Below, one piece after another: positions 45,873 to 59,832 of a stretch of 59,832 nt of DNA. The notes under the pieces were generated by a model. That model worked only from the letters and a program-made list of their open reading frames with translations. It searched no databases and was not told the DNA's origin. The stretch comes from Alloascoidea hylecoeti (taxonomy: Eukaryota): assembly GCA_001600815.1 (NCBI GenBank), contig BCKZ01000013.1:645621-705452 (forward strand), read 5' to 3'. Positions within the stretch are counted from its first letter, which is position 1. The number at the start of each line of letters is the position of its first letter. The position numbers and the translations under genes were made by a program.

Positions 45873-46771
45873 TCAAAGCTTGCCTATTTTGTCAAACATG
45901 GCCCATTCATCGTCGTTGCCCGGTTCCGACTCTTTAAGGTTAGGGTCTTCGGTTGGTGTGTCATTGACATCCTGCAGCCAGCCGAGCAACGTCGTAATCT
46001 GTCCCTTACTATTTGGAACAAAGTGCCCGCCCGGGTGTCGTAACATAGTCCTACTAGATTCTTCACATGAGTCCCAAAGTAAGAGACTTCTCTCCTCTGA
46101 AACCACCGTATCCAAACTTCCCAACACATGTAAAGTCGGAGTGTCGATCTTTTTGTCATACATAAACTGTAGGAACTCCGCCTTTGCTCGGAATCCACTG
46201 TAGAAAATAGCAAACTTGAATGGATCCTGCTTAATCAGTATTTTCTGGGATTCATCATTGGAACCTCTGGCGTAAAATGGCTTACTATGCTGAATGTTTG
46301 TAATATACTCACATAATAATCCAGCAAACCCAGCACCCTGACTAAACCCAATTACTCCTTCGAAGGGACCTTGTTTTTCAACTGCCTCATTTATTATCAG
46401 GAGACTTGTCTCCAATGAGTAATAATCGGGCTTCGTTTCGTCTGCTGGCCACCAGGATCTGTAATTAGGGTTGTCATCCTGAACTGATTGGCCTCCTAAG
46501 GAAGACACATCCGACACTTGGAAAGGTAAATCAGCAGTTTTTAGTATAATTGGGCCATCGACATAGATTAACTCGTAGTTTAGTTTTTGGAGTGCTTTAC
46601 GAAGGCCAGAAGACTTTTTCTGGAAAATTGAACCGCACTTGAGGTTGCCGAAAACGAAAAAAAACAACATGCAAAGTCAATATCTCTAAGTCATATATAT
46701 GGAGATGATCAGGATTAACATACCTGAACAAACCCGTGAAGACACAGGATCTTTCTTGTTTTGGTGGCCAT
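45873..46771 (-). CDS. FSH1/OVCA2-family serine hydrolase, 2 exons (46771-46724, 46637-45873), 270 aa
   Basis: KILCLHGFVQ|CGSIF, GFSQGA, GSLD and HPGGH. Confidence 0.9.
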
Positions 46772-48262: not shown

Positions 48263-49224
48263 TTATTCCAGATATCTCTTATAATCAGCTATATCGATAT
48301 CTAATTCTACATCAGTGTCTGTATCTGAATTGGAATTGTAATCCATCCCGGAAGTTGAATCATTTGTTTCAGTGTCACTGTCTATTTTAGGAAAAGATTT
48401 TGTCAAATCTTCAGAGGAACTGCTGTGCAAAGTTTTAGTTTCGATATCATTTGATTCAATATTTTTCACCCATTTTATTATTTGGTTAACCTGATTCTTT
48501 CCATTCGGAATAAAATGAGCACCCCGATGCCTGATAATAGTTCTTTTTGATTCTTTACAAACTCTCCAAAGACTTAAACTGCATCTTCTTGACATCTCGA
48601 GATCCAAATCACCTATAACATGCAATGTTGGTAAATCGATTTGTTTTTTATACATAAACTGCAAATGGTTTGACTTAATAAAAATTCGAAATCCACTGAA
48701 AAAAATTGCAAATTTAAACATTTTTTGCTTGATTATTATCTTCTCCCCCTGAAAATAAAATGGAGATTTTTTTTGAATATGAAACATATATTCGCATAAT
48801 AATCCTGCAAATGCTGCCCCTTGACTGAAACCAATAATTCCCTCAAATGGACCATATTTATCGATTGCATCACTAACGTGATGAAGACCTTGCTCCAGTG
48901 AAGAATATTCTTTTTTTGAGAAATCATATGGCCACCATGACCTGATATAAGAAATCTCACCATCTATTTTAGGTTTATTCGATATGTGTGGAAACCCAGA
49001 ATCGTCTGATGGAAAATCGCATAACTTGATTGCAATCGGTGCATCAAGATAATGCAGCTCATATCCAAAATCTTGAAGAGCTTCTCGAACTTGAGAAGAT
49101 TTTGCAAACATCTCGGAAGCACACTATATATTAACTCAATGTTAATATCCATCAATTCCAGTCAAAGGAAATTTAACGAACTTACTTGTCCAAAACCATG
49201 AAGGCATAAAATCTTTCCCCCCAT
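48263..49224 (-). CDS. Second FSH1-family serine hydrolase, 2 exons (49224-49186, 49123-48263), 299 aa
   Basis: KILCLHGFGQ|CASEMF, GFSQGA, GDLD and HRGAH. The intron is at the same position as in the neighbouring paralogue. Confidence 0.85.
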
Positions 49225-50909: not shown

Positions 50910-51854
50910 CCTCTAAGGGTTGTTAATACACAACAGAGTATATAATTTTAATTGTTGATTAATATTTATAAGGAATAGGATATTGGCGAATGGCGATCGT
51001 ATTTACACAATAAACTGTTCTAGATATAACATGCATACGTGGATATACATGTAATATACGGTTTATATAATATATATAACTATATATATATATATTTAAA
51101 CCAAATAGCAATGCACAATATAATTAATTATAGTATATTTGCTATACCGTTACATGTAGTACGTACTATATATATAGTGTATGCTTAAAAAAAGACCTAA
51201 AACCCTATATCTTAATCTGATCATATATATGACTTTTTGGCGGACGCAATTGGTTCCACAGTCTCTTTGATATATAATTGCAGTCGCAGCAGCAGATGAG
51301 ATCGTTCTGAATGGTAAATATTTTAATAAAACTCTTATTTTAAATCATATAAATTTGGGCGGATAACAAAACTCTGGGAATATCAAATCCTTGCCCATTG
51401 GGGGCTTACAAAGCTTATACATGTACTGCACCCACCTATAACTATTTACTAGTACTATTTGAGTCCAAAGATATATTTTATATACTCGGGCTCAAGGGAC
51501 TTAAACGCAAGGCGATAATAACATACTTACAATATATTTAATAATGATGTTGAATTTTTGGGAACTATGGGAAGAGTATACTGTCAGTTTCTGTACGTAA
51601 TATGTTTATGCAGCCATATTAATCTTTAGATTAGAGATGCATATATACTTATGATAGTTAATCTATTAGTTACATGTAATTCGTTACTTAGATATACGGA
51701 ATGAGTCCTACACTTTATGGTCTATAAGGGTTACTCGACGGAATCCAGCGTCCTGATTTGGAGTCGTGCATACTGCACCAACCTCCGCAACAAAAGATAG
51801 TGTCTATAATTAACGCTAGGTGCCTAGGTGTGATTATACCGGTACAACCTTTCC

Positions 51855-52205
51855 ACCTATTTATAGCGCTATTCTCGAAGATAATTAGCGATCTTGCGAG
51901 CGATCTTGCGGAAAATAATTTAGCGTTACCTAGGAGAATTTGGTAGTGTTATATGCGACAATTAATTGGTCACAAGTTAGCGCTATGTTCAAAAATTAAT
52001 TAATGATTCTATAAAGTTATTTAGCGATCGGATTGAATTAATAATTAGCCACATCTCCAAAACTTAATTAGTGATATGTGCAAAAATTGATTAGCGATTT
52101 TTCTAAATATTGTTTACCCATATCTTTGAAATCTAATTAGCGTTAAGTATGAGAAATAATAAATAATTAGCATTCTCTAAGGTGAGGGAGTTAATTAGTC
52201 ATCAC
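51855..52205 (+). repeat. Array A-left: ~15 degenerate units, ~23-nt period, core AATTAATTAGCG
   Basis: TAGCG-like cores at 51864, 51886, 51921, 51944, 51967, 51978, 52001, 52022, 52046, 52069, 52092, 52115, 52138, 52168 and 52196. Confidence 0.85.
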
Positions 52206-52550
52206 ACAATAGATAGGTAACAGTGATTAGACTATTTTCAACTCATCAAATTATTTTATTAGAAAAAAAAGAAAGATACTCAAGTATTCTAGATTTATAT
52301 TTCGTAGTATTTAACTTACTATTTACTATGATGGGGGATTCAATTTAAAATTCTTAAGGAAAGTCATAGCTAATTCACGAATTTGAAAGTGTCTATAATT
52401 TCTGCCGGTATCGATTCCACACGAAACTTTTAAAGTATAGGGAGTCTTAGGGACCCTTATTATAATTAGAAGTTGCTATAATAATTTCCCAGATAATGTA
52501 GACGCACAAGTGCACGGCTTGTTGTAAGTTTGAAAGCAAATTAATGTATG

Positions 52551-52710
52551 GTGGTCGATTATTTGTGAGTCATGTAATCTAATATTAACTCAAGATGTGG
52601 GCGAATATTTAATGCAAGTAGTGCTTGAATAATTTATTGAATAAGTGGTCTAACCTTTATGTCTGATATGGTCGAGTATTTAATTCAGGGGTGATTGCAT
52701 ATTAACTGTA
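52551..52710 (+). repeat. Array B: 7 degenerate units, ~23-nt period, core GTGGTCGAATATTTAAT
   Basis: Units start at 52551, 52574, 52597, 52621, 52645, 52668 and 52691. Confidence 0.8.
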
Positions 52711-52714
52711 TACC

Positions 52715-53824
52715 GTTGGAAAGAGGGGGGTATATCGACGTTATCAGCCAGAAATAAAACATCAAGTATATGATCTGATTCATGATCATGGTTATACTGT
52801 TGCAGAGGCATCCCGGAAACAACACGTTCCATCATCAACAATTCGTAATTGGTTAAAAGAAGAAGAAATGAATCCTGACTTCAGACCTGTTGAGAAAAAG
52901 GAATGCAAACCTGGTCCAAAACCAGGAACTACTGGAAAGTTAAACGACACTCAAAAAGATTTCATGATTGCCCTGATAGATGATGATCCGGGAATAACAG
53001 CGAATGGAAAGGTGGACCAATTAACTACTAATTTCAATGGTTTAAAAATATCGAAAGCTGTCCACTCTTATATCACTAAAAAGTGTAACCTATCCCTCAA
53101 ACAGGTTTCATATCATAGTATTGACAGAAACAGTGAGGCATCAATTGAAAAAAGTAGATGTTGGGTATTTCAATGGGAGCCGCATCTCAACTACTTACAA
53201 AATACAGTATTTGTTGATAAGAGTTCTTTCACCGTTCATATGAGTCGCTCGGTAGCATGGTCCACCAAAGGTGAATGGGAAACAGTTGCTGTTCCTCGAA
53301 CACGGTCAACAACAACGACCATTTTGGGGGCGATAAGTGCTCATGATCCCTTTTATTTGAGGTTAAGGTTCGACAACCAGCAATGAATAAGAAAAGAAAA
53401 AAGGATCGTGGTAATGAGACGACACAGCTAGCTCCTAACAACAAATACGGGACCAATAGTAGTCACTATTTTAGCTATATTAAACATTTCATAGGAGAAA
53501 TGGATAGACACAGTATTTATAAGGAGGCCTACATAGTCACGGACAACAGTCCCATCCATAAAAATCATGAAATATCAAAGTTCATAGGAGAAAAAGGATA
53601 TTGCTGTGTTTTGTTTACCTCCCTATTCACCGGACCTCAATCTGATTGAGCTATTTTGGGCGGTCTCAAAAGCTCGGGTTCAACGTGAGCATGTTGATAA
53701 AGAGGAGGAATTAATTGAAAAATTCCGTGATGCCGTGAAATCCATACCAAAAGAATATTATAAAAACTTTTGTGAACATTCATCGACGTTCTTCAAAAAT
53801 TGTAAATTAGGAGATCCATTGTAG
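52715..53824 (+). pseudogene. IS630/Tc1-family DDE transposase pseudogene (two frameshifts, no start ATG)
   Basis: HTH (YTVAEASRKQHVPSSTIRNW), VFVDKSSF, TTILGAIS, IVTDNSPIH and LPPYSPDLNLIE split over three frames, with approximately D34E spacing. Confidence 0.9.
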
Positions 53825-53900
53825 TACGTAGCAATAAATAGGAGGCTTGAATATCATTTTCGTATATAATACTTGATGGTTTGTATAGTGGTTTATTTAT

Positions 53901-54043
53901 GTCGATGAATATTCACAAAACTTTTATAATATTCTTTTGGTATGGATTTCACGCCATCACGGAATTTTTCAATTAATTCCTCCTCTTTATCAACATGCTC
54001 ACGTTGAACCCGAGCTTTTGAGGCCGCCCAAAATAGCTCAATC
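53901..54043 (-). repeat. Inverted copy of the transposase 3' segment 53644-53787
   Basis: Near-identical reverse complement encoding IELFWA.SKARVQREHVDKEEELIEKFRD. Confidence 0.92.
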
Positions 54044-54064
54044 GGATAGGGACAGTGATATCTT

Positions 54065-54335
54065 TTTTCGGGAAAATAGTTAATTAACTCCCACACTTAA
54101 CGCTAATTAGTTCTCGTACATAGCATCAATTAATGTTTACAGATAGCGCCAATTAAATTTCAAAGATAAGTCTAATTAATTTTCAGCAAGTACGCTAATA
54201 ATCTTTACACACGGATCACTAGTTAATTTTCAAAGGAGTGACTAATTAATCGTTTATACGGATCGCTAAATTATTTTATAAAATAGCACTAATTAAGTTT
54301 CGTAAATAACGCTAAATAATTGACGATTTTTACTG
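54065..54335 (-). repeat. Array A-right: 11 units, ~23-nt period, inverted relative to A-left
   Basis: CGCTA-like cores at 54078, 54101, 54124, 54147, 54170, 54193, 54217, 54240, 54264, 54287 and 54310. Confidence 0.88.
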
Positions 54336-54344
54336 CCTTTTCTA

Positions 54345-55160
54345 TTGAAAAGGGTATAAGATAGAGGATAGAGAACTAAATCCACCTCTGGATTTAGTCT
54401 CCTTTTTTATTAATATTTATGTATATAAGTTATATAATTGTGAGTATAAATATTAAATAATAAATCGGCGTACGTCAGAAGTATTTTTCAACATTCCCGC
54501 TACTTCGAAACATTCAATAATAAAAATAAGAAAGTAAAATAAGTAGTTGAAAATAGGATATTAATAATAAGTTTTTAAAATAATAAAATAAGAAACTTTT
54601 CTTTAAAATAAAACAAGCTTTCCCTTTTCCAAATTAATAAGATAAATGAGTAATAAGTTTTCATATATAATTTGAGATTTCAAGTAACATAAGTTAAACA
54701 TAATTGAATAGAAATAAACAATAAATATAAAATAAGATATAAAATTTCAAATAAGTATTAAAAGTATTTTTAGTTCATGATCTTATTTATCAATAAATTG
54801 TATTGATTATGTTCCAGATTTTTTGTAAGTTGGTCTGCCATTTTCATTTGTTTGTATTAATAAAGTTTTATACTTCCATTTTCAACTAATTGTCTAGTGA
54901 AGAAATACTTGATCTCAATGTGTTTATTACGACCAGTACTGTGTATTCCCATCATAAGTGCTGATTGATTATCGTTAACAATATTGAGAGGATTAACAGA
55001 TAAGTTGAGTTCCTTAAGAAATTTTTTTACATATAGAGCATGATGAGTTCCACAGCAAATCGCAGTTAATTCACTCTCAGAATTACTTAATGTAATTGAT
55101 GAGATCTTCTGAGATTTCCAACTTACCATATTGTTGTTCATGAATGTGATATAACCATGA
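54345..55160 (-). mobile_element. Ty1/copia 3' fragment: RNase H remnant (~55160-54830), 3' UTR and 3' LTR (~54493-54345)
   Basis: VSWKSQK..TLSNSESE..DNQSA..RNKHIEIKYFF is copia RNase H. On the minus strand a purine-rich GCGGGAA directly precedes TGTTGAAAAA. Confidence 0.85.
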
Positions 55161-55179
55161 TTATGACGATTTTAAGTGC

Positions 55180-55791
55180 TTTTTTTATTGAAGTAAAGTA
55201 GTTAAAATATGAATAAGATAAAGGATAGAGAACTAAATCCTTAGGGGGATTTAGCTTCTATTTATATTAATTTTAAGTATATAAGTATATAAGTTATTCA
55301 TAAGAATATTAAATAATAAATCGCAGTATGTGAGAAGTATAACTCACATTCTCAGAACTTTGATACATATAAGAATTTAAAAATAGAAACAAACATTTTC
55401 TTAAATATAATAAATGTTAATAAATATAAAATAAATGTTTTGAGATATAAATAACATAAAATTTGAGATATTTGAGATAAGCATATCAAGATAAAAAGGG
55501 TATAAGAAAAATGAGTATTTTTAGATAAATATAACAAAAATAATAAGATAAATAGAATTTATCATTTTTAAAGAATAAACTATTTTGTGTAAAATGATAT
55601 GTTTTAAGAGATTTTTAAATAAATATAAAAAACTTTTAGCTTTTAATTTGTAAGAAATATTAATAAGATAAAGGATAGAGAAAGAAATCCAGAGGTGGAT
55701 TTCTTCTCTTTTTATATTACTTTTTTACTGTATAACTTATATAAATTAAGATATTATTAATTTGCATATGTTGCTAAATATAGTTTCAACA
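55180..55791 (-). mobile_element. Two further minus-strand LTR copies (~55190-55348, ~55640-55791) with adjacent 3'-UTR remnants
   Basis: Both share TAAGATAAAGGATAGAG, the hairpin and GAAGTAT/AAATAT...CA|TTCTCAG with the 54345-54493 copy. Left boundaries are approximate. Confidence 0.7.
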
Positions 55792-55917
55792 TTCTCAGTA
55801 TTTTAAGGCATATGCAAATTATAAAGTAATCAATAAAAATAATAATGATAAAAATAAGTTTTGTTTAATTCTAATAAAAATAAAAACATCATAAGTGTTT
55901 TTTGTTTAATAAGAATA

Positions 55918-57700
55918 TGTTAAAAAATGATATTCAACAAGATAAATATTATTAAATAAACTATATAGATATATAAGAAAAATGAATATAAAAGGGACTA
56001 AATCCTGAGGATCTCAATCCTGTTTATCTTATTACCATCTCTTACTACTAAAAGTGAAAAATTTACAAAATTAATAGATTTCCAATCTTTTCGTCTTGTT
56101 AAATTTGATCAATTACTAGTAAAATTTTCACAAACTTTTATTACAAACTTTATTTTTACAAACTTACTTTACAAATTTTATTAAAATTTACTATTCCATA
56201 CAAAAATGTCTGGTGAATTCGCAGTCAGTCCAGATCCCCTGGACACTACTAAAACCTTCACCTATCAGGACTTCGTGATGTATGGAACAAAAGATCTGCC
56301 TTATGAACAATTTAAATTGTTCAACGAATCAATTAACAACCAATCATTTGAAAAATTTGACAAGGGCTTTTACTTTCCAATTGTGTTCGCCTGGTTTGAG
56401 GCCACATTTGCAAGTCTTTTAACCGACAAGAATCATTCAAATGATGTAATTATTGAATTGAACAACTGTGGCCATCATCCTATTAACTTTAGTCATACAA
56501 TCGACCATATGATTAGAGTTAGATTTACTGACAATGTTTTAAATGATTTTGACTCCAACTTAACCGGCATACAGTTATTTACTGAACTATACAATGCATA
56601 TAGTAAGGTTAATTTTGAAACACTTGAAAGAATTCTACTTTTAAAACATGTTATGAAAAATATTATTACCCATGGTTCTAATTATAAAGAATTCAATAAC
56701 CACGTCACTATTATGCAATACTACTTCGACCATTTCAACTCATTTACGCCTTACTTTGCTATGTTTAATGTATCACCAGAACAAATTGATACTGTACTAA
56801 ACAGAGAACAATTAGCAACTTACACCGCCTTTGAAGGATTTACATACAGAAACTTGATTAAACTTACCAAAAATCTTGATAAATTTAAAAATATTGAAAC
56901 AGAACAAGTTAATTATCTTAAATTTAATAAATCCGTTACTTCTAACTCCGATAATACTTCCAATGATAATATTTCAAAAGTTTAGTATGGTCTTTCAAAC
57001 GATCCAACAGTTAACGATGCCGACGAAGTATTCATTGTCCAAGACATTCCATTCATTTTAGACTCGGGATCAACCTGTCATCTAGTCAATGATGAAACAC
57101 TATTGGAAAACATTTTGGAATCAAATACGTATGTTAAAGGGATTGATAACGTGGCATCTAAAGTCAAACAAGGCGATCTTACCATCGGTAATCTCACCTT
57201 ACATGATGTAAAGGTATATCCAACATCGGATAAGAATATCATTTCAGGAGATCTTCTTACCAAAATTGGATATAATATAAACTTAAATCATAAACATGCA
57301 ACTATTACGAAGGACAATCAGCTGATTCTAAAAGCAATCAAAAAGAATCGATTTTGGGAAATTACTCCAAATGATTCTTAAAATTAGAAGAAACAAATTT
57401 AATGGATCTTCATGTTAAAAATCGTGATGCTTCTCCTGATTCTCTAAAAGGGCAATTTCCGAAATTAAATCTCTCTGAATTACGTTCTATTGTACAAAGT
57501 TGTCTCATCTGTGCTTCTCAAGTTAAATTATATCATGGTCCATTCAAAGATGACAAACCCACATCACCTGGTTCTTATGTTAGTGCTGATATCTTTGGTC
57601 CAAACAACGGACAATATGGTCTGACTCTCGGTGATCGTCACACTGGTTTCCTAATGGGGTATATTCTACAATCCAAAGCAGAAGCATCTGATAAATTGAT
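55918..57700 (+). mobile_element. Truncated Ty1/copia element: 5' LTR (~55918-56077), gag-like ORF 56206-56985, protease and integrase N-terminus
   Basis: The LTR matches 57826-57997. Protease FILDSGSTCHLVND; integrase H...CLIC and VSADIFGP; stops and a frameshift near 57380-57400. Confidence 0.85.
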
Positions 57701-58260
57701 TGTATGTATATAAGTTATATAATTGTAAGTATAAATATTAAATAATAAATCGAAGTATGTAAGAAGTATTTTTCAACATTAACTACATTTATATTATTCA
57801 ATTATTTTTTGAATATTAAAAAGAATGTTAAAAAATAATATTCAACAACAAAATAAATAGTAAATATACTATATAGATATATAAGAAAAATGAATATAAA
57901 AGGGACTAAATCCTCCTCAGGATTTAGATCTCCATCCTGTTTATCTTACAATCATCTCATACTACTAAAAAGTGAAAAATTTACAAAATTATTAACATAT
58001 CCGATATGCAGTGCAGATTAATCATCAAATGATCTGCATAGGTTTCCTATTTATATTGAATTACGGGCCTTGCATGTTAATTAATGCAGGGGGTGCGTGG
58101 TCATTCATATACTACAGCAAGCCCCTTAATATTGCCACCTTCTTATTATTATTTAGCCTATATAGTTACATATATAAGATAGCTAAATCCATTGGATTTA
58201 ACTCTCTACTTTTTCTTATTTCTCTTTAATATATTTTTACTTTATTAGTTTCACCAATTA
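57701..58260. mobile_element. Nested LTR pieces: minus-strand partial (~57701-57778), full TGTTAA...TTAACA LTR (57826-57997), degenerate copy (~58140-58260)
   Basis: Similarity to the LTR copies at 54420-54493, 55918-56077 and 59741-end, plus the shared hairpin. Confidence 0.75.
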
Positions 58261-58279
58261 TTACTTTAATGTCCTTGCT

Positions 58280-59250
58280 AGTCTTGATGAAGACACTGAA
58301 ACGAATGACGCTTCTTTAGATGGTAACAACACCTTAACAAAAGAAACAATACAATCAAACAATGGTTCATCTGCTTTCACTAATTCAAATCATAACTCTG
58401 TTAACTCTGATTCTGTATCATCTGGTTCTATTAGTCCTGAAGAAATTGTTCCAAAAGACTATATTCTGGACGCATCAATCAATGCTTTGAACTTCAATAA
58501 ACAAAAAACCAAATTATCTAACGTTCCCACTGCTGTTCCTTTTTCAAACTCTTCAAACTCATCGGTTGACACTCAAGGAGACACAATCATGAAAGACTTT
58601 CCTACATCAACTCCTAATAAAAAAGTAACAATCAATAGTCCTGAGTGAACCCATGATTATATAGTCGAAGACATAACNGATCAAAAGGAATTACCAAGTA
58701 ACTACAAACAATTGAAGTATTATGACGATGATCCTCTTAATGCATTGGAAAAACAAATAGTACATCAACCAAAGCAATCAAAACCTGACAGAATTACTGA
58801 TTCCCCTGATCCTATAGATGTTATTGACAAGTCCCTTTCACGCTACTTTTCAAATAATTTAGAAGAAACATATTTACTAATGCCATACACAACAGAAGCA
58901 ATTCCTAAAGATTATTCTGAAGTATTGAAATCAAAGAGTAAAGACAATTGGGAACTAGCTATGAAAATGGAACTAGAATCACTGAGAAAACATGAAGTTT
59001 ATACCGAATCAAAAGAAAAAGTACAAAAAAAAAAATAATAAGTTCAAAATGGGTATTTACTTTGAAAAACATGAAAGGTTTACCTGTTTATAAGGCACGA
59101 CTGGTTTGCAAGGGNTTCACTCAAATGAAGGGTATCAACTTTAATACCACATATTCACCAGTCTCTTCATATGACAGTTTCCGTACTCTTCTTGCTATTC
59201 ATACTCAACATCCAGAACATGTAATGGTCCAAATAGATGTGAAAACAGCT
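58280..59250 (+). mobile_element. Ty1/copia pol remnant: IN-RT linker and reverse-transcriptase N-terminus
   Basis: IPKDYSEVL..WELAMKMELESL, KWVFT, YKARLVCK.FTQ..GINF..TYSPV and QIDVKTAF, with a stop and a frameshift. Confidence 0.88.
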
Positions 59251-59832
59251 TTTGTTTCTCTAATGCATTGAGAGGATCATCTTCATAATACTTCAATTGT
59301 TTGTAATTGCTTGGTAATTCCTTTTGATCGGTTATGTCTTCGACTATATAATCATGGGTTGACTCAGGACTATTGATTGTTACTTTTTTATTAGGAGTTG
59401 ATGTAGGAAAGTCTTTCATGATTGTGTCTCCTTGAGTGTCAACAGATGAATTGGAAGAGTTTGAGAAGGGAACAGTAGTAGGAACATTGGGTAGTTTAGT
59501 GGTTTGTTTTTTTGTTGAAGTTTAGTGCATTGATTGATGCATCTAGAATGTAATCTTTTGGAACATATTCTTCAGGGCTAATGGAACCAGATGATACAGA
59601 ATTATGATTAGAAGAGGTAGAAATAGATGGACCATTGTTAGATGTTGATTAGAAAAATTGTAAATTGTAAGTTTGTAAAAGTAGTTAATATTAATTGTAT
59701 TAAAGAAAAAAGGTTAAGGAGCCAAAATCCTTTAAGAAGATGTTGAAAAATACTTCTTACATACTTCGATTTATTATTTAATATTTATACTTACAATTAT
59801 ATAACTTATATACATAAATATTAATATAAAAG
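59250..59832. mobile_element. Inverted diverged copy of the pol linker (~59250-59640), then an LTR fragment (~59643-59740) and an LTR starting at 59741 that runs off the window
   Basis: The minus strand encodes MKDFPTSTPNKKVTINSPE...PLNALEKQ, matching ~58590-58758. TGTTGAAAAATACTTC at 59741 is the reverse complement of the LTR end at ~57778. Confidence 0.8.

Follow-up and report, generated by a model that had tools for sequence, protein, structure and literature searches.

The question raised by this locus, part of a 59,832-nucleotide stretch of the yeast Alloascoidea hylecoeti (contig BCKZ01000013.1; hereafter the window, in whose coordinates all positions are given), is what the two arrays of a short repeat are that face each other across a transposase-like reading frame, and whether that frame belongs to them. 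The original prediction saw here a Foldback-like element of a possibly undescribed family, either encoding the transposase or later invaded by it. We found that the arrays are the terminal inverted repeats (TIRs) of a single decayed Dici/Tc1-MP1-like DD34E transposon. Our best explanation, which we hold to be likely, is a Dici/Tc1-MP1-type cut-and-paste transposon (IS630-Tc1-mariner, ITm; DD34E) that was formerly autonomous, has since decayed and has TIRs made of tiled arrays of putative binding units. Its parts are the following:

51843 to 51844, plus strand: TA dinucleotide, presumed left copy of a TA target-site duplication (terminus profile of relatives)
51845 to 52239, plus strand: left TIR, some 395 bp long and holding about 15 degenerate units of 23 nt (autocorrelation, core profile, terminus profile and arm alignment)
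52712 to 53824, plus strand: broken Dici/Tc1-MP1-like transposase (Pfam HTH_Tnp_1 and DDE_3)
54066 to 54320, minus strand: right TIR with 11 units at 23-24-nt spacing, outer part lost (core profile, arm alignment and contigs)

The claim of two facing arrays with a 23-nt period was borne out: the lag-23 autocorrelation was 0.397 in the left region (51840-52215) and 0.518 in the right region (54066-54335), against maxima of 0.39 and 0.43, respectively, in 1000 shuffles, and these regions hold the best lag-23 tiles of the entire window. An iterated core profile placed 11 minus-strand units in the right array, from 54321 to 54089, in steps of 23-24 nt. In the left array the core profile gave 11 plus-strand hits (51879-52189) with less regular steps (21-24, 28-35 and 46 nt); the count of about 15 left units combines the 11 hits with weaker units judged by eye. 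A lone further hit at 51804 has a score comparable to those found elsewhere in the window. Within the left arm two core registers are interleaved about 11-12 nt apart (51914-51994) and 12 nt are exactly duplicated (51887-51910), which explains the half-period peaks (lags 12, 34 and 57) observed in this arm only. Tandem Repeats Finder, which had been suggested as a check, did see the right array but reported only 2.1 units there, because the units are too degenerate.

The arrays align as inverted copies, the point on which the Foldback-like interpretation had been made to depend: 174 of the 229 columns of a global alignment are identical (76%; score 229, against a maximum of 119.5 in 300 shuffles), and blastn pairs 51977-52145 with 54144-54315 in inverted orientation (73% over 173 nt). 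The segments between the cores had been taken for variable spacers, partly collinear between the two sides. Their collinearity exceeds chance but is modest (the observed score was reached in 124 of 5040 permutations), and they do not vary freely. Since 6 of the 11 spacer columns carry 0.7-1.0 bit, the so-called spacers are degenerate parts of one 23-mer, in which the core reaches 2.0 bits and the remaining positions 0.2-1.0 within the arrays. This matters for the suggestion of a guide-RNA-like role, in which the repeat-spacer layout would be an array like that of clustered regularly interspaced short palindromic repeats (CRISPR). The resemblance lies in the superficial core-plus-spacer appearance. 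Against it, the spacers are about 11 nt long, partly conserved by column and collinear between the arms, they match exactly at 2 other places in the window where 1.8 would be expected by chance, a search of Rfam gave no match at E<=1, and what is encoded next to them is a DDE transposase rather than a guided nuclease. We consider a guide array exceedingly improbable.

The left end of the element was located with a terminus profile of 30 columns, constructed from 14 ends that were called among 58 flanks of relatives (p<=0.02) with the window left out; two of these ends (L006_3 and L019_5; p 0.015-0.02) are possibly false. The TA at 51843-51844 scores +11.8, which ranks second among the 10,780 TA sites of the window and first on the plus strand, and the first left core ends 24 nt inside this terminus, the same offset as in the relatives. 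We also compared the region with contigs from four public runs (at most three samples), ignoring uncovered bins: in X2 the summed contig depth is 21.2 (own contig 20.8) up to the bin that begins at 51846, where it jumps to 274.8. We regard 51845, with the sequence TA|CAACC, as the most likely left terminus. The start at 51840 that had been given earlier was rejected, as the two TA sites closest to it score -19.5 (51835) and -26.0 (51837), versus +11.8 at 51843.

A transposase of DD34E type is indeed present between the arms, as had been claimed, but it is broken into three frames (52712-53368, 53362-53610 and 53588-53821). The catalytic residues are found at 53216 (D1) and at codons 53542 (D2) and 53648 (E), where the D2-E distance of 106 nt equals 35 codons plus one extra base and yields the DD34E triad. 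Modelled helices (15-27, 32-39 and 43-55; 81-93, 99-109 and 117-126) form two three-helix bundles joined by a GPKP linker, a PAIRED-type N-terminus, after which the DDE domain follows with a KKRKK insert that sits in frame 53347-53649, a stretch aligning to residues 284-364 of protein P0002. This protein of 434 amino acids is the best full-length relative (37% identity, E 1.2e-37) among 517 HMMER library hits at E<=0.001, and by eye it is nearly identical to Tc1-MP1 of Mucor piriformis; the three pieces of the window align to its residues 67-434 at 35-36% identity each, about 370 codons in all. Tc1-MP1 appears as Dici FUN-MUPI-1 in the 2026 Dici paper, the text of which describes the members of the family as having a single coding sequence for 432-478 amino acids, about 40% mean identity, a GRPR-like linker, KKRK in the catalytic core and a TA duplication (PMC13469147). 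All species-named relatives in two cluster listings are Mucorales, and in a quick tree the window transposase pairs with P0004 among Mucorales-type rows (support 99, with P0004 on a long branch). P0004 is an open frame of 433 amino acids with altered catalytic motifs. A word-index protein search returned 90 candidates, none of them at E<=0.001, and no relative was confirmed in viral contigs (177 and 94 candidate stretches) or in prokaryote genomes (108). Judged from its sequence, the element is Dici-like and a probable member of the Dici family; with a transposase of this published type, the idea of an undescribed family finds no support.

The periodic ends recur in the relatives. By eye alone, as for Tc1-OP1 below, the published 141-bp TIR of Tc1-MP1 (PMC9977792) splits as 26 + 5 x 23 nt, with a related core closing each unit and a seventh unit in the 5' untranslated region; in Tc1-MP1 and several relatives the first core ends, again by eye, 24 nt inside the TA-flanked terminus. 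Both ends could be detected as an inverted repeat in 6 of 42 related metagenome loci. Five of these have a top lag of 21-23 (p<=0.01), and the sixth, L001, with a core near the window's own, gave p=0.40 in the lag test and a six-link TTAGC chain (p=0.016), so that all six are periodic at 21-23 nt by at least one of the two tests (lag and chain). More broadly, a top lag of 21-23 at p<=0.05 was found in 11 of the 54 testable flanks of relatives versus 3 of 103 host tiles. In the 12 terminus-anchored ends (the two possibly false ends were excluded), the mean z is highest at lag 22 (1.8) and lag 23 (1.7) and at no other lag exceeds 0.6; the top lag is 22-24 in 9 of the 12, and 8 outside flanks have no such peak. 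The cores vary between elements (TTAGC, TTCGTG, TAAGAG, TTTGCG and TGAAAC) and the pitch is constant at 21-24 nt. The end architecture of 21-23 bp thus accompanies related transposases in Mucorales-type elements and is roughly doubled in the window, with about 15 units in the left arm (about 395 bp) versus 6-7 in the relatives. Dici TIR lengths of 8-187 bp have been reported and called highly variable (PMC13469147); the left TIR of the window exceeds this range, being twice the longest published value. In the supplement of PMC9977792, the 169-bp yeast TIR of Tc1-OP1 likewise has a motif that recurs at about 21-22 nt by eye.

A divergent pair of relatives, L039 (370-514 and 1727-1872) and L034 (277-338 and 1581-1644), has TIRs that are near-perfect 21-nt tandem repeats, with a lag-21 identity of up to 0.89, and that resemble young minisatellites. 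Such repeats look recently slipped and speak for an alternative in which only the outermost unit matters, the inner ones having arisen from the terminal site by slippage as a neutral expansion that amounts to an incipient minisatellite; the variable unit number and the left arm of the window, with its exact 12-nt duplication and broken phase, point the same way. However, the period is held at 21-24 nt across transposases that are about 25-40% identical, despite the change of core, and the core is better kept than the rest of the unit, suggesting selection on core and spacing. We therefore think it unlikely that the inner units are neutral.

The relatives also bear on the second half of the original prediction, which had left open whether the element encodes the transposase or was invaded by it. 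Because periodic TIRs with the same terminal register accompany relatives of the transposase, we conclude that the element encodes its transposase and was not invaded by it. An invasion of a non-coding Foldback element by an unrelated Tc1-like transposon, or a right half formed by a second, deleted element placed tail-to-tail, could draw on the inverted transposase fragment beside the right array (described below), on the arms being just 76% alike, and on a short motif at the inner array ends that by eye resembles the CACTA-type terminus of Tc1-MP1. A nested element bounded by the inner ends of the arrays was considered and rejected, as the inner motif fits the last array unit. Further, no separate TIR pair surrounds the transposase inside the arrays, imperfect TIRs are common in the Dici family (78-87% in several members, according to the text of PMC13469147), and a second element lying tail-to-tail would leave the nature of the arrays unchanged. 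Both scenarios appear very unlikely to us.

The right end differs from what had been proposed. The CAGT-type terminus CAGTAAAAATC was rejected, since it falls within a retrotransposon repeat and is not a transposon end:

54321 to 54777, minus strand: copia-type long terminal repeat (LTR) of 457 bp, TG...CA, high copy, inserted into the right TIR (sister LTRs and contigs)

A sister LTR opens with the same sequence at 55164 (86% over 29 nt and 73% over 230 nt); more pieces are found at 55663, 55898-56076, 57703-57994 and from 59740 onward. The LTR copies flank copia-type gag-pol remnants to the right, with Pfam RVT_2 and Pol_BBD downstream. In the contigs the flank at 54323 differs in a further copy of the LTR, and the LTR contig depth in X1 is 15,543 versus about 55. 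The array-LTR junction is not an assembly error, because an exact contig crosses it in all four runs. The array also continues past this point elsewhere in the genome: a divergent 597-nt contig (38 differences over 54065-54321) runs beyond 54321 into left-arm-like sequence, a joint that links 54321 with 51972 in opposite orientation and leads into sequence matching the left arm at and below 51972 is present in all four runs, and a loose end in X4 carries the array onward without the LTR. The joint indicates that the right TIR was once about 128 bp longer and was cut by the retrotransposon. At present the right arm is 255 bp long and truncated; the absent outer part of about 128 bp matches 51845-51972 and was not found elsewhere in the window.

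Other copies in the same organism are known as contig pieces only. The summed depth over the arrays in X1 (578 and 764 versus 44-62 for single contigs), which is no copy-number measure, shows that the element ends are repeated. Divergent transposase contigs are present in the runs, and the contigs of other copies carry the arrays, extend the right arm outward and join the 3' part of the transposase to the right array. The latter connection concerns the remaining part of the element:

53901 to 54047, minus strand: second, inverted copy (about 96%) of 53640-53787 from the 3' part of the transposase, making a hairpin with a 113-nt loop

This duplicate adjoins the right arm and is common to other genomic copies. 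Divergent contigs span 53998-54296 in all four runs and 54024-54315 in three of the four, across the junction of duplicate and array, so that the duplication is older than at least some copies; in one copy the transposase runs straight into the right arm (joint 53921-54065, three of four runs). By analogy with the Goblin miniature inverted-repeat transposable element, for which the text of PMC3814204 proposes that the template was switched while a gap was being repaired, such an event is the most likely origin of the inverted 3' fragment. The lineage carries the internal inverted duplication, and the copy in the window later gained frameshifts and the LTR insertion. It is dead and truncated.

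As to what the arrays do, the TIRs consist of degenerate 23-bp units arrayed head to tail, the first of them at a fixed distance from the TA-flanked terminus, and the earlier description of a DNA transposon with long modular TIRs, probably composed of transposase-binding repeats, agrees with this. Each unit would be a putative binding site for the bipartite helix-turn-helix domain of the transposase, the outermost unit placing the catalytic domain at the TA boundary and so setting the cut. The inner units may load further transposase as a tiled row, which would convert a weak sequence preference into end specificity and could aid the pairing of the ends (synapsis). Units would turn over through slippage and unequal exchange, which would give rise to imperfect arms with unit-sized indels. 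Going further, Dici-type transposons might in general recognise their ends by a Tn7-like row of 6-16 transposases at a conserved pitch of 21-24 bp, doubled in this element, where for other Tc1/mariner elements one to three sites have been described, with P0004-type sisters perhaps kept by the host to coat, silence or exploit the arrays; we offer this extension tentatively, as a possibility that we would not favour at present.

The inner units might instead be mainly regulatory, either as decoy or autorepression sites for the transposase or as sites for an AT-binding or homeodomain-like host protein. We counted in favour of such a role the TAATTA within the core of the window, which we take to be a homeodomain-type motif. 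The altered catalytic motif of P0004, the nearest neighbour in the tree, was counted likewise. In the Bari3 element, binding of the transposase to the TIR reduces promoter activity, according to the text of PMC4120734. On the other hand, the cores differ among relatives, which is a better fit to a binder encoded by the element than to a conserved host factor, and the arrays are present at both ends rather than at the promoter end alone. A mainly regulatory role seems quite unlikely to us; it is compatible with tiled binding, and both can hold together.

Several observations weigh against the explanation by tiled binding units in a Dici-type transposon. The role of the units is assigned by analogy with the Tn7 TnsB arrays and the Galileo TIR repeats, and the terminus profile takes in the first core and thus partly depends on the array motif, although what it is meant to show is the offset of that core. 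The right TA of the element is not visible, the LTR insertion having cut off that end, and the contigs yielded no second copy that is complete, with both of its termini and the TA duplication. Among the relatives, 36 of the 42 loci have no detectable TIR pair (many of them are short or decayed), a clade of 18 loci has a left end only, with weak periodicity, and the chain test was positive in just 10 of 40 loci. As regards the protein, the identity to P0002 of 35-36% lies under the 40% family mean, the first 66 residues of P0002 have no match in the window, and a Foldseek fold search gave no match at E<=0.001, the best being Mos1 and Pax paired domains at E 0.03-0.1. Finally, the quick tree contains 52 rows of relatives only, lacks Gambol and Hiker, and was used for the nearest neighbour alone.

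According to PMC13469147, no endogenous DNA transposons had been shown to move in a yeast before the Dici elements; the ends of these elements have been described by length and first bases only. TIR subrepeats are not mentioned in the searchable text of PMC13469147 and PMC9977792, a search that extended neither to the figures nor to one Dici supplement, and our literature searches found periodic TIRs undescribed for the Dici family, with the proviso that Repbase reports or subscription papers could describe them. The family is published, and the periodic design of its ends is apparently unreported. If the units are tiled transposase sites, this design of end recognition would be unusual for Tc1/mariner elements, the long and imperfect TIRs of the published table would be explained, and those who build tools from fungal transposons would learn which cis sequences to retain. 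The value of the dead copy in the window is as a pointer to a family trait, of which it is the longest example among the elements compared.

The surroundings of the element show further features. In the region 54321-59832, decayed elements of copia type are nested in a cluster, lie in either orientation and include six or more LTR pieces, and a minus-strand frame at 54857-55171, without Pfam match, carries a motif from which we presume it to be a copia RNase H tail. Inside a copia remnant lies an inverted duplication of 350 bp (90%; 58410-58757 versus 59251-59602), a second fold-back near the one of the transposase. On the other side of the element, two neighbouring minus-strand frames are of the FSH1-type serine hydrolase kind, one at 48263-49123, with a Pfam FSH1 match, more diverged and with no start codon in view, and one at 45873-46676 that is similar by eye. 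X4 is a wood-decay metagenome in which 70% of the sampled words were found and whose contigs have 0-2 differences, a single-study hint at the habitat of the host.

Among known systems, Tn7 offers the mechanistic analogue for a tiled row: TnsB binds weakly conserved sites of about 22 bp, the spacing of which converts weak preference into end recognition (text of PMC9308760). Tn7 is an analogue in mechanism only, as it is a bacterial, unrelated multi-protein system with 3-4 sites per end and asymmetric ends. With Galileo and other Foldback elements the window element shares long TIRs built from internal tandem repeats; in Galileo the tandem repeats hold extra transposase-binding sites and may supply specificity (PMC3688188), but the transposase there is a THAP protein of the P superfamily, whereas here an ITm DD34E enzyme (DDE_3) is encoded in the middle. 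Tetris has repeats of about 220 bp and no coding middle (PMC4079207), in contrast to the 23-bp unit and the array starting from the very end found here. The inverted repeat-direct repeat Tc1 elements (Bari, S, Minos, Paris and Sleeping Beauty) by the account in the text of PMC4120734 have two or three direct repeats per TIR; they resemble the window element in their long ends, along which transposase-binding sites recur, and in their enzyme of DD34E type, and differ in that their repeats are separated within ends of about 250 bp, whereas here 11-15 putative sites are contiguous at a pitch of 23 nt. Compared with Dici/Tc1-MP1, the window element stands apart by its TIR of about 395 bp, the broken reading frame, the internal inverted duplication and the LTR insertion. 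It resembles these elements in the DD34E triad, the paired-like N-terminus, the GPK-type linker, the KKRK insert, the TA at the visible end and the imperfect TIRs, and in the Tc1-MP1 TIR the first core likewise ends, by eye, 24 nt from the end and is followed by units of 23 nt.

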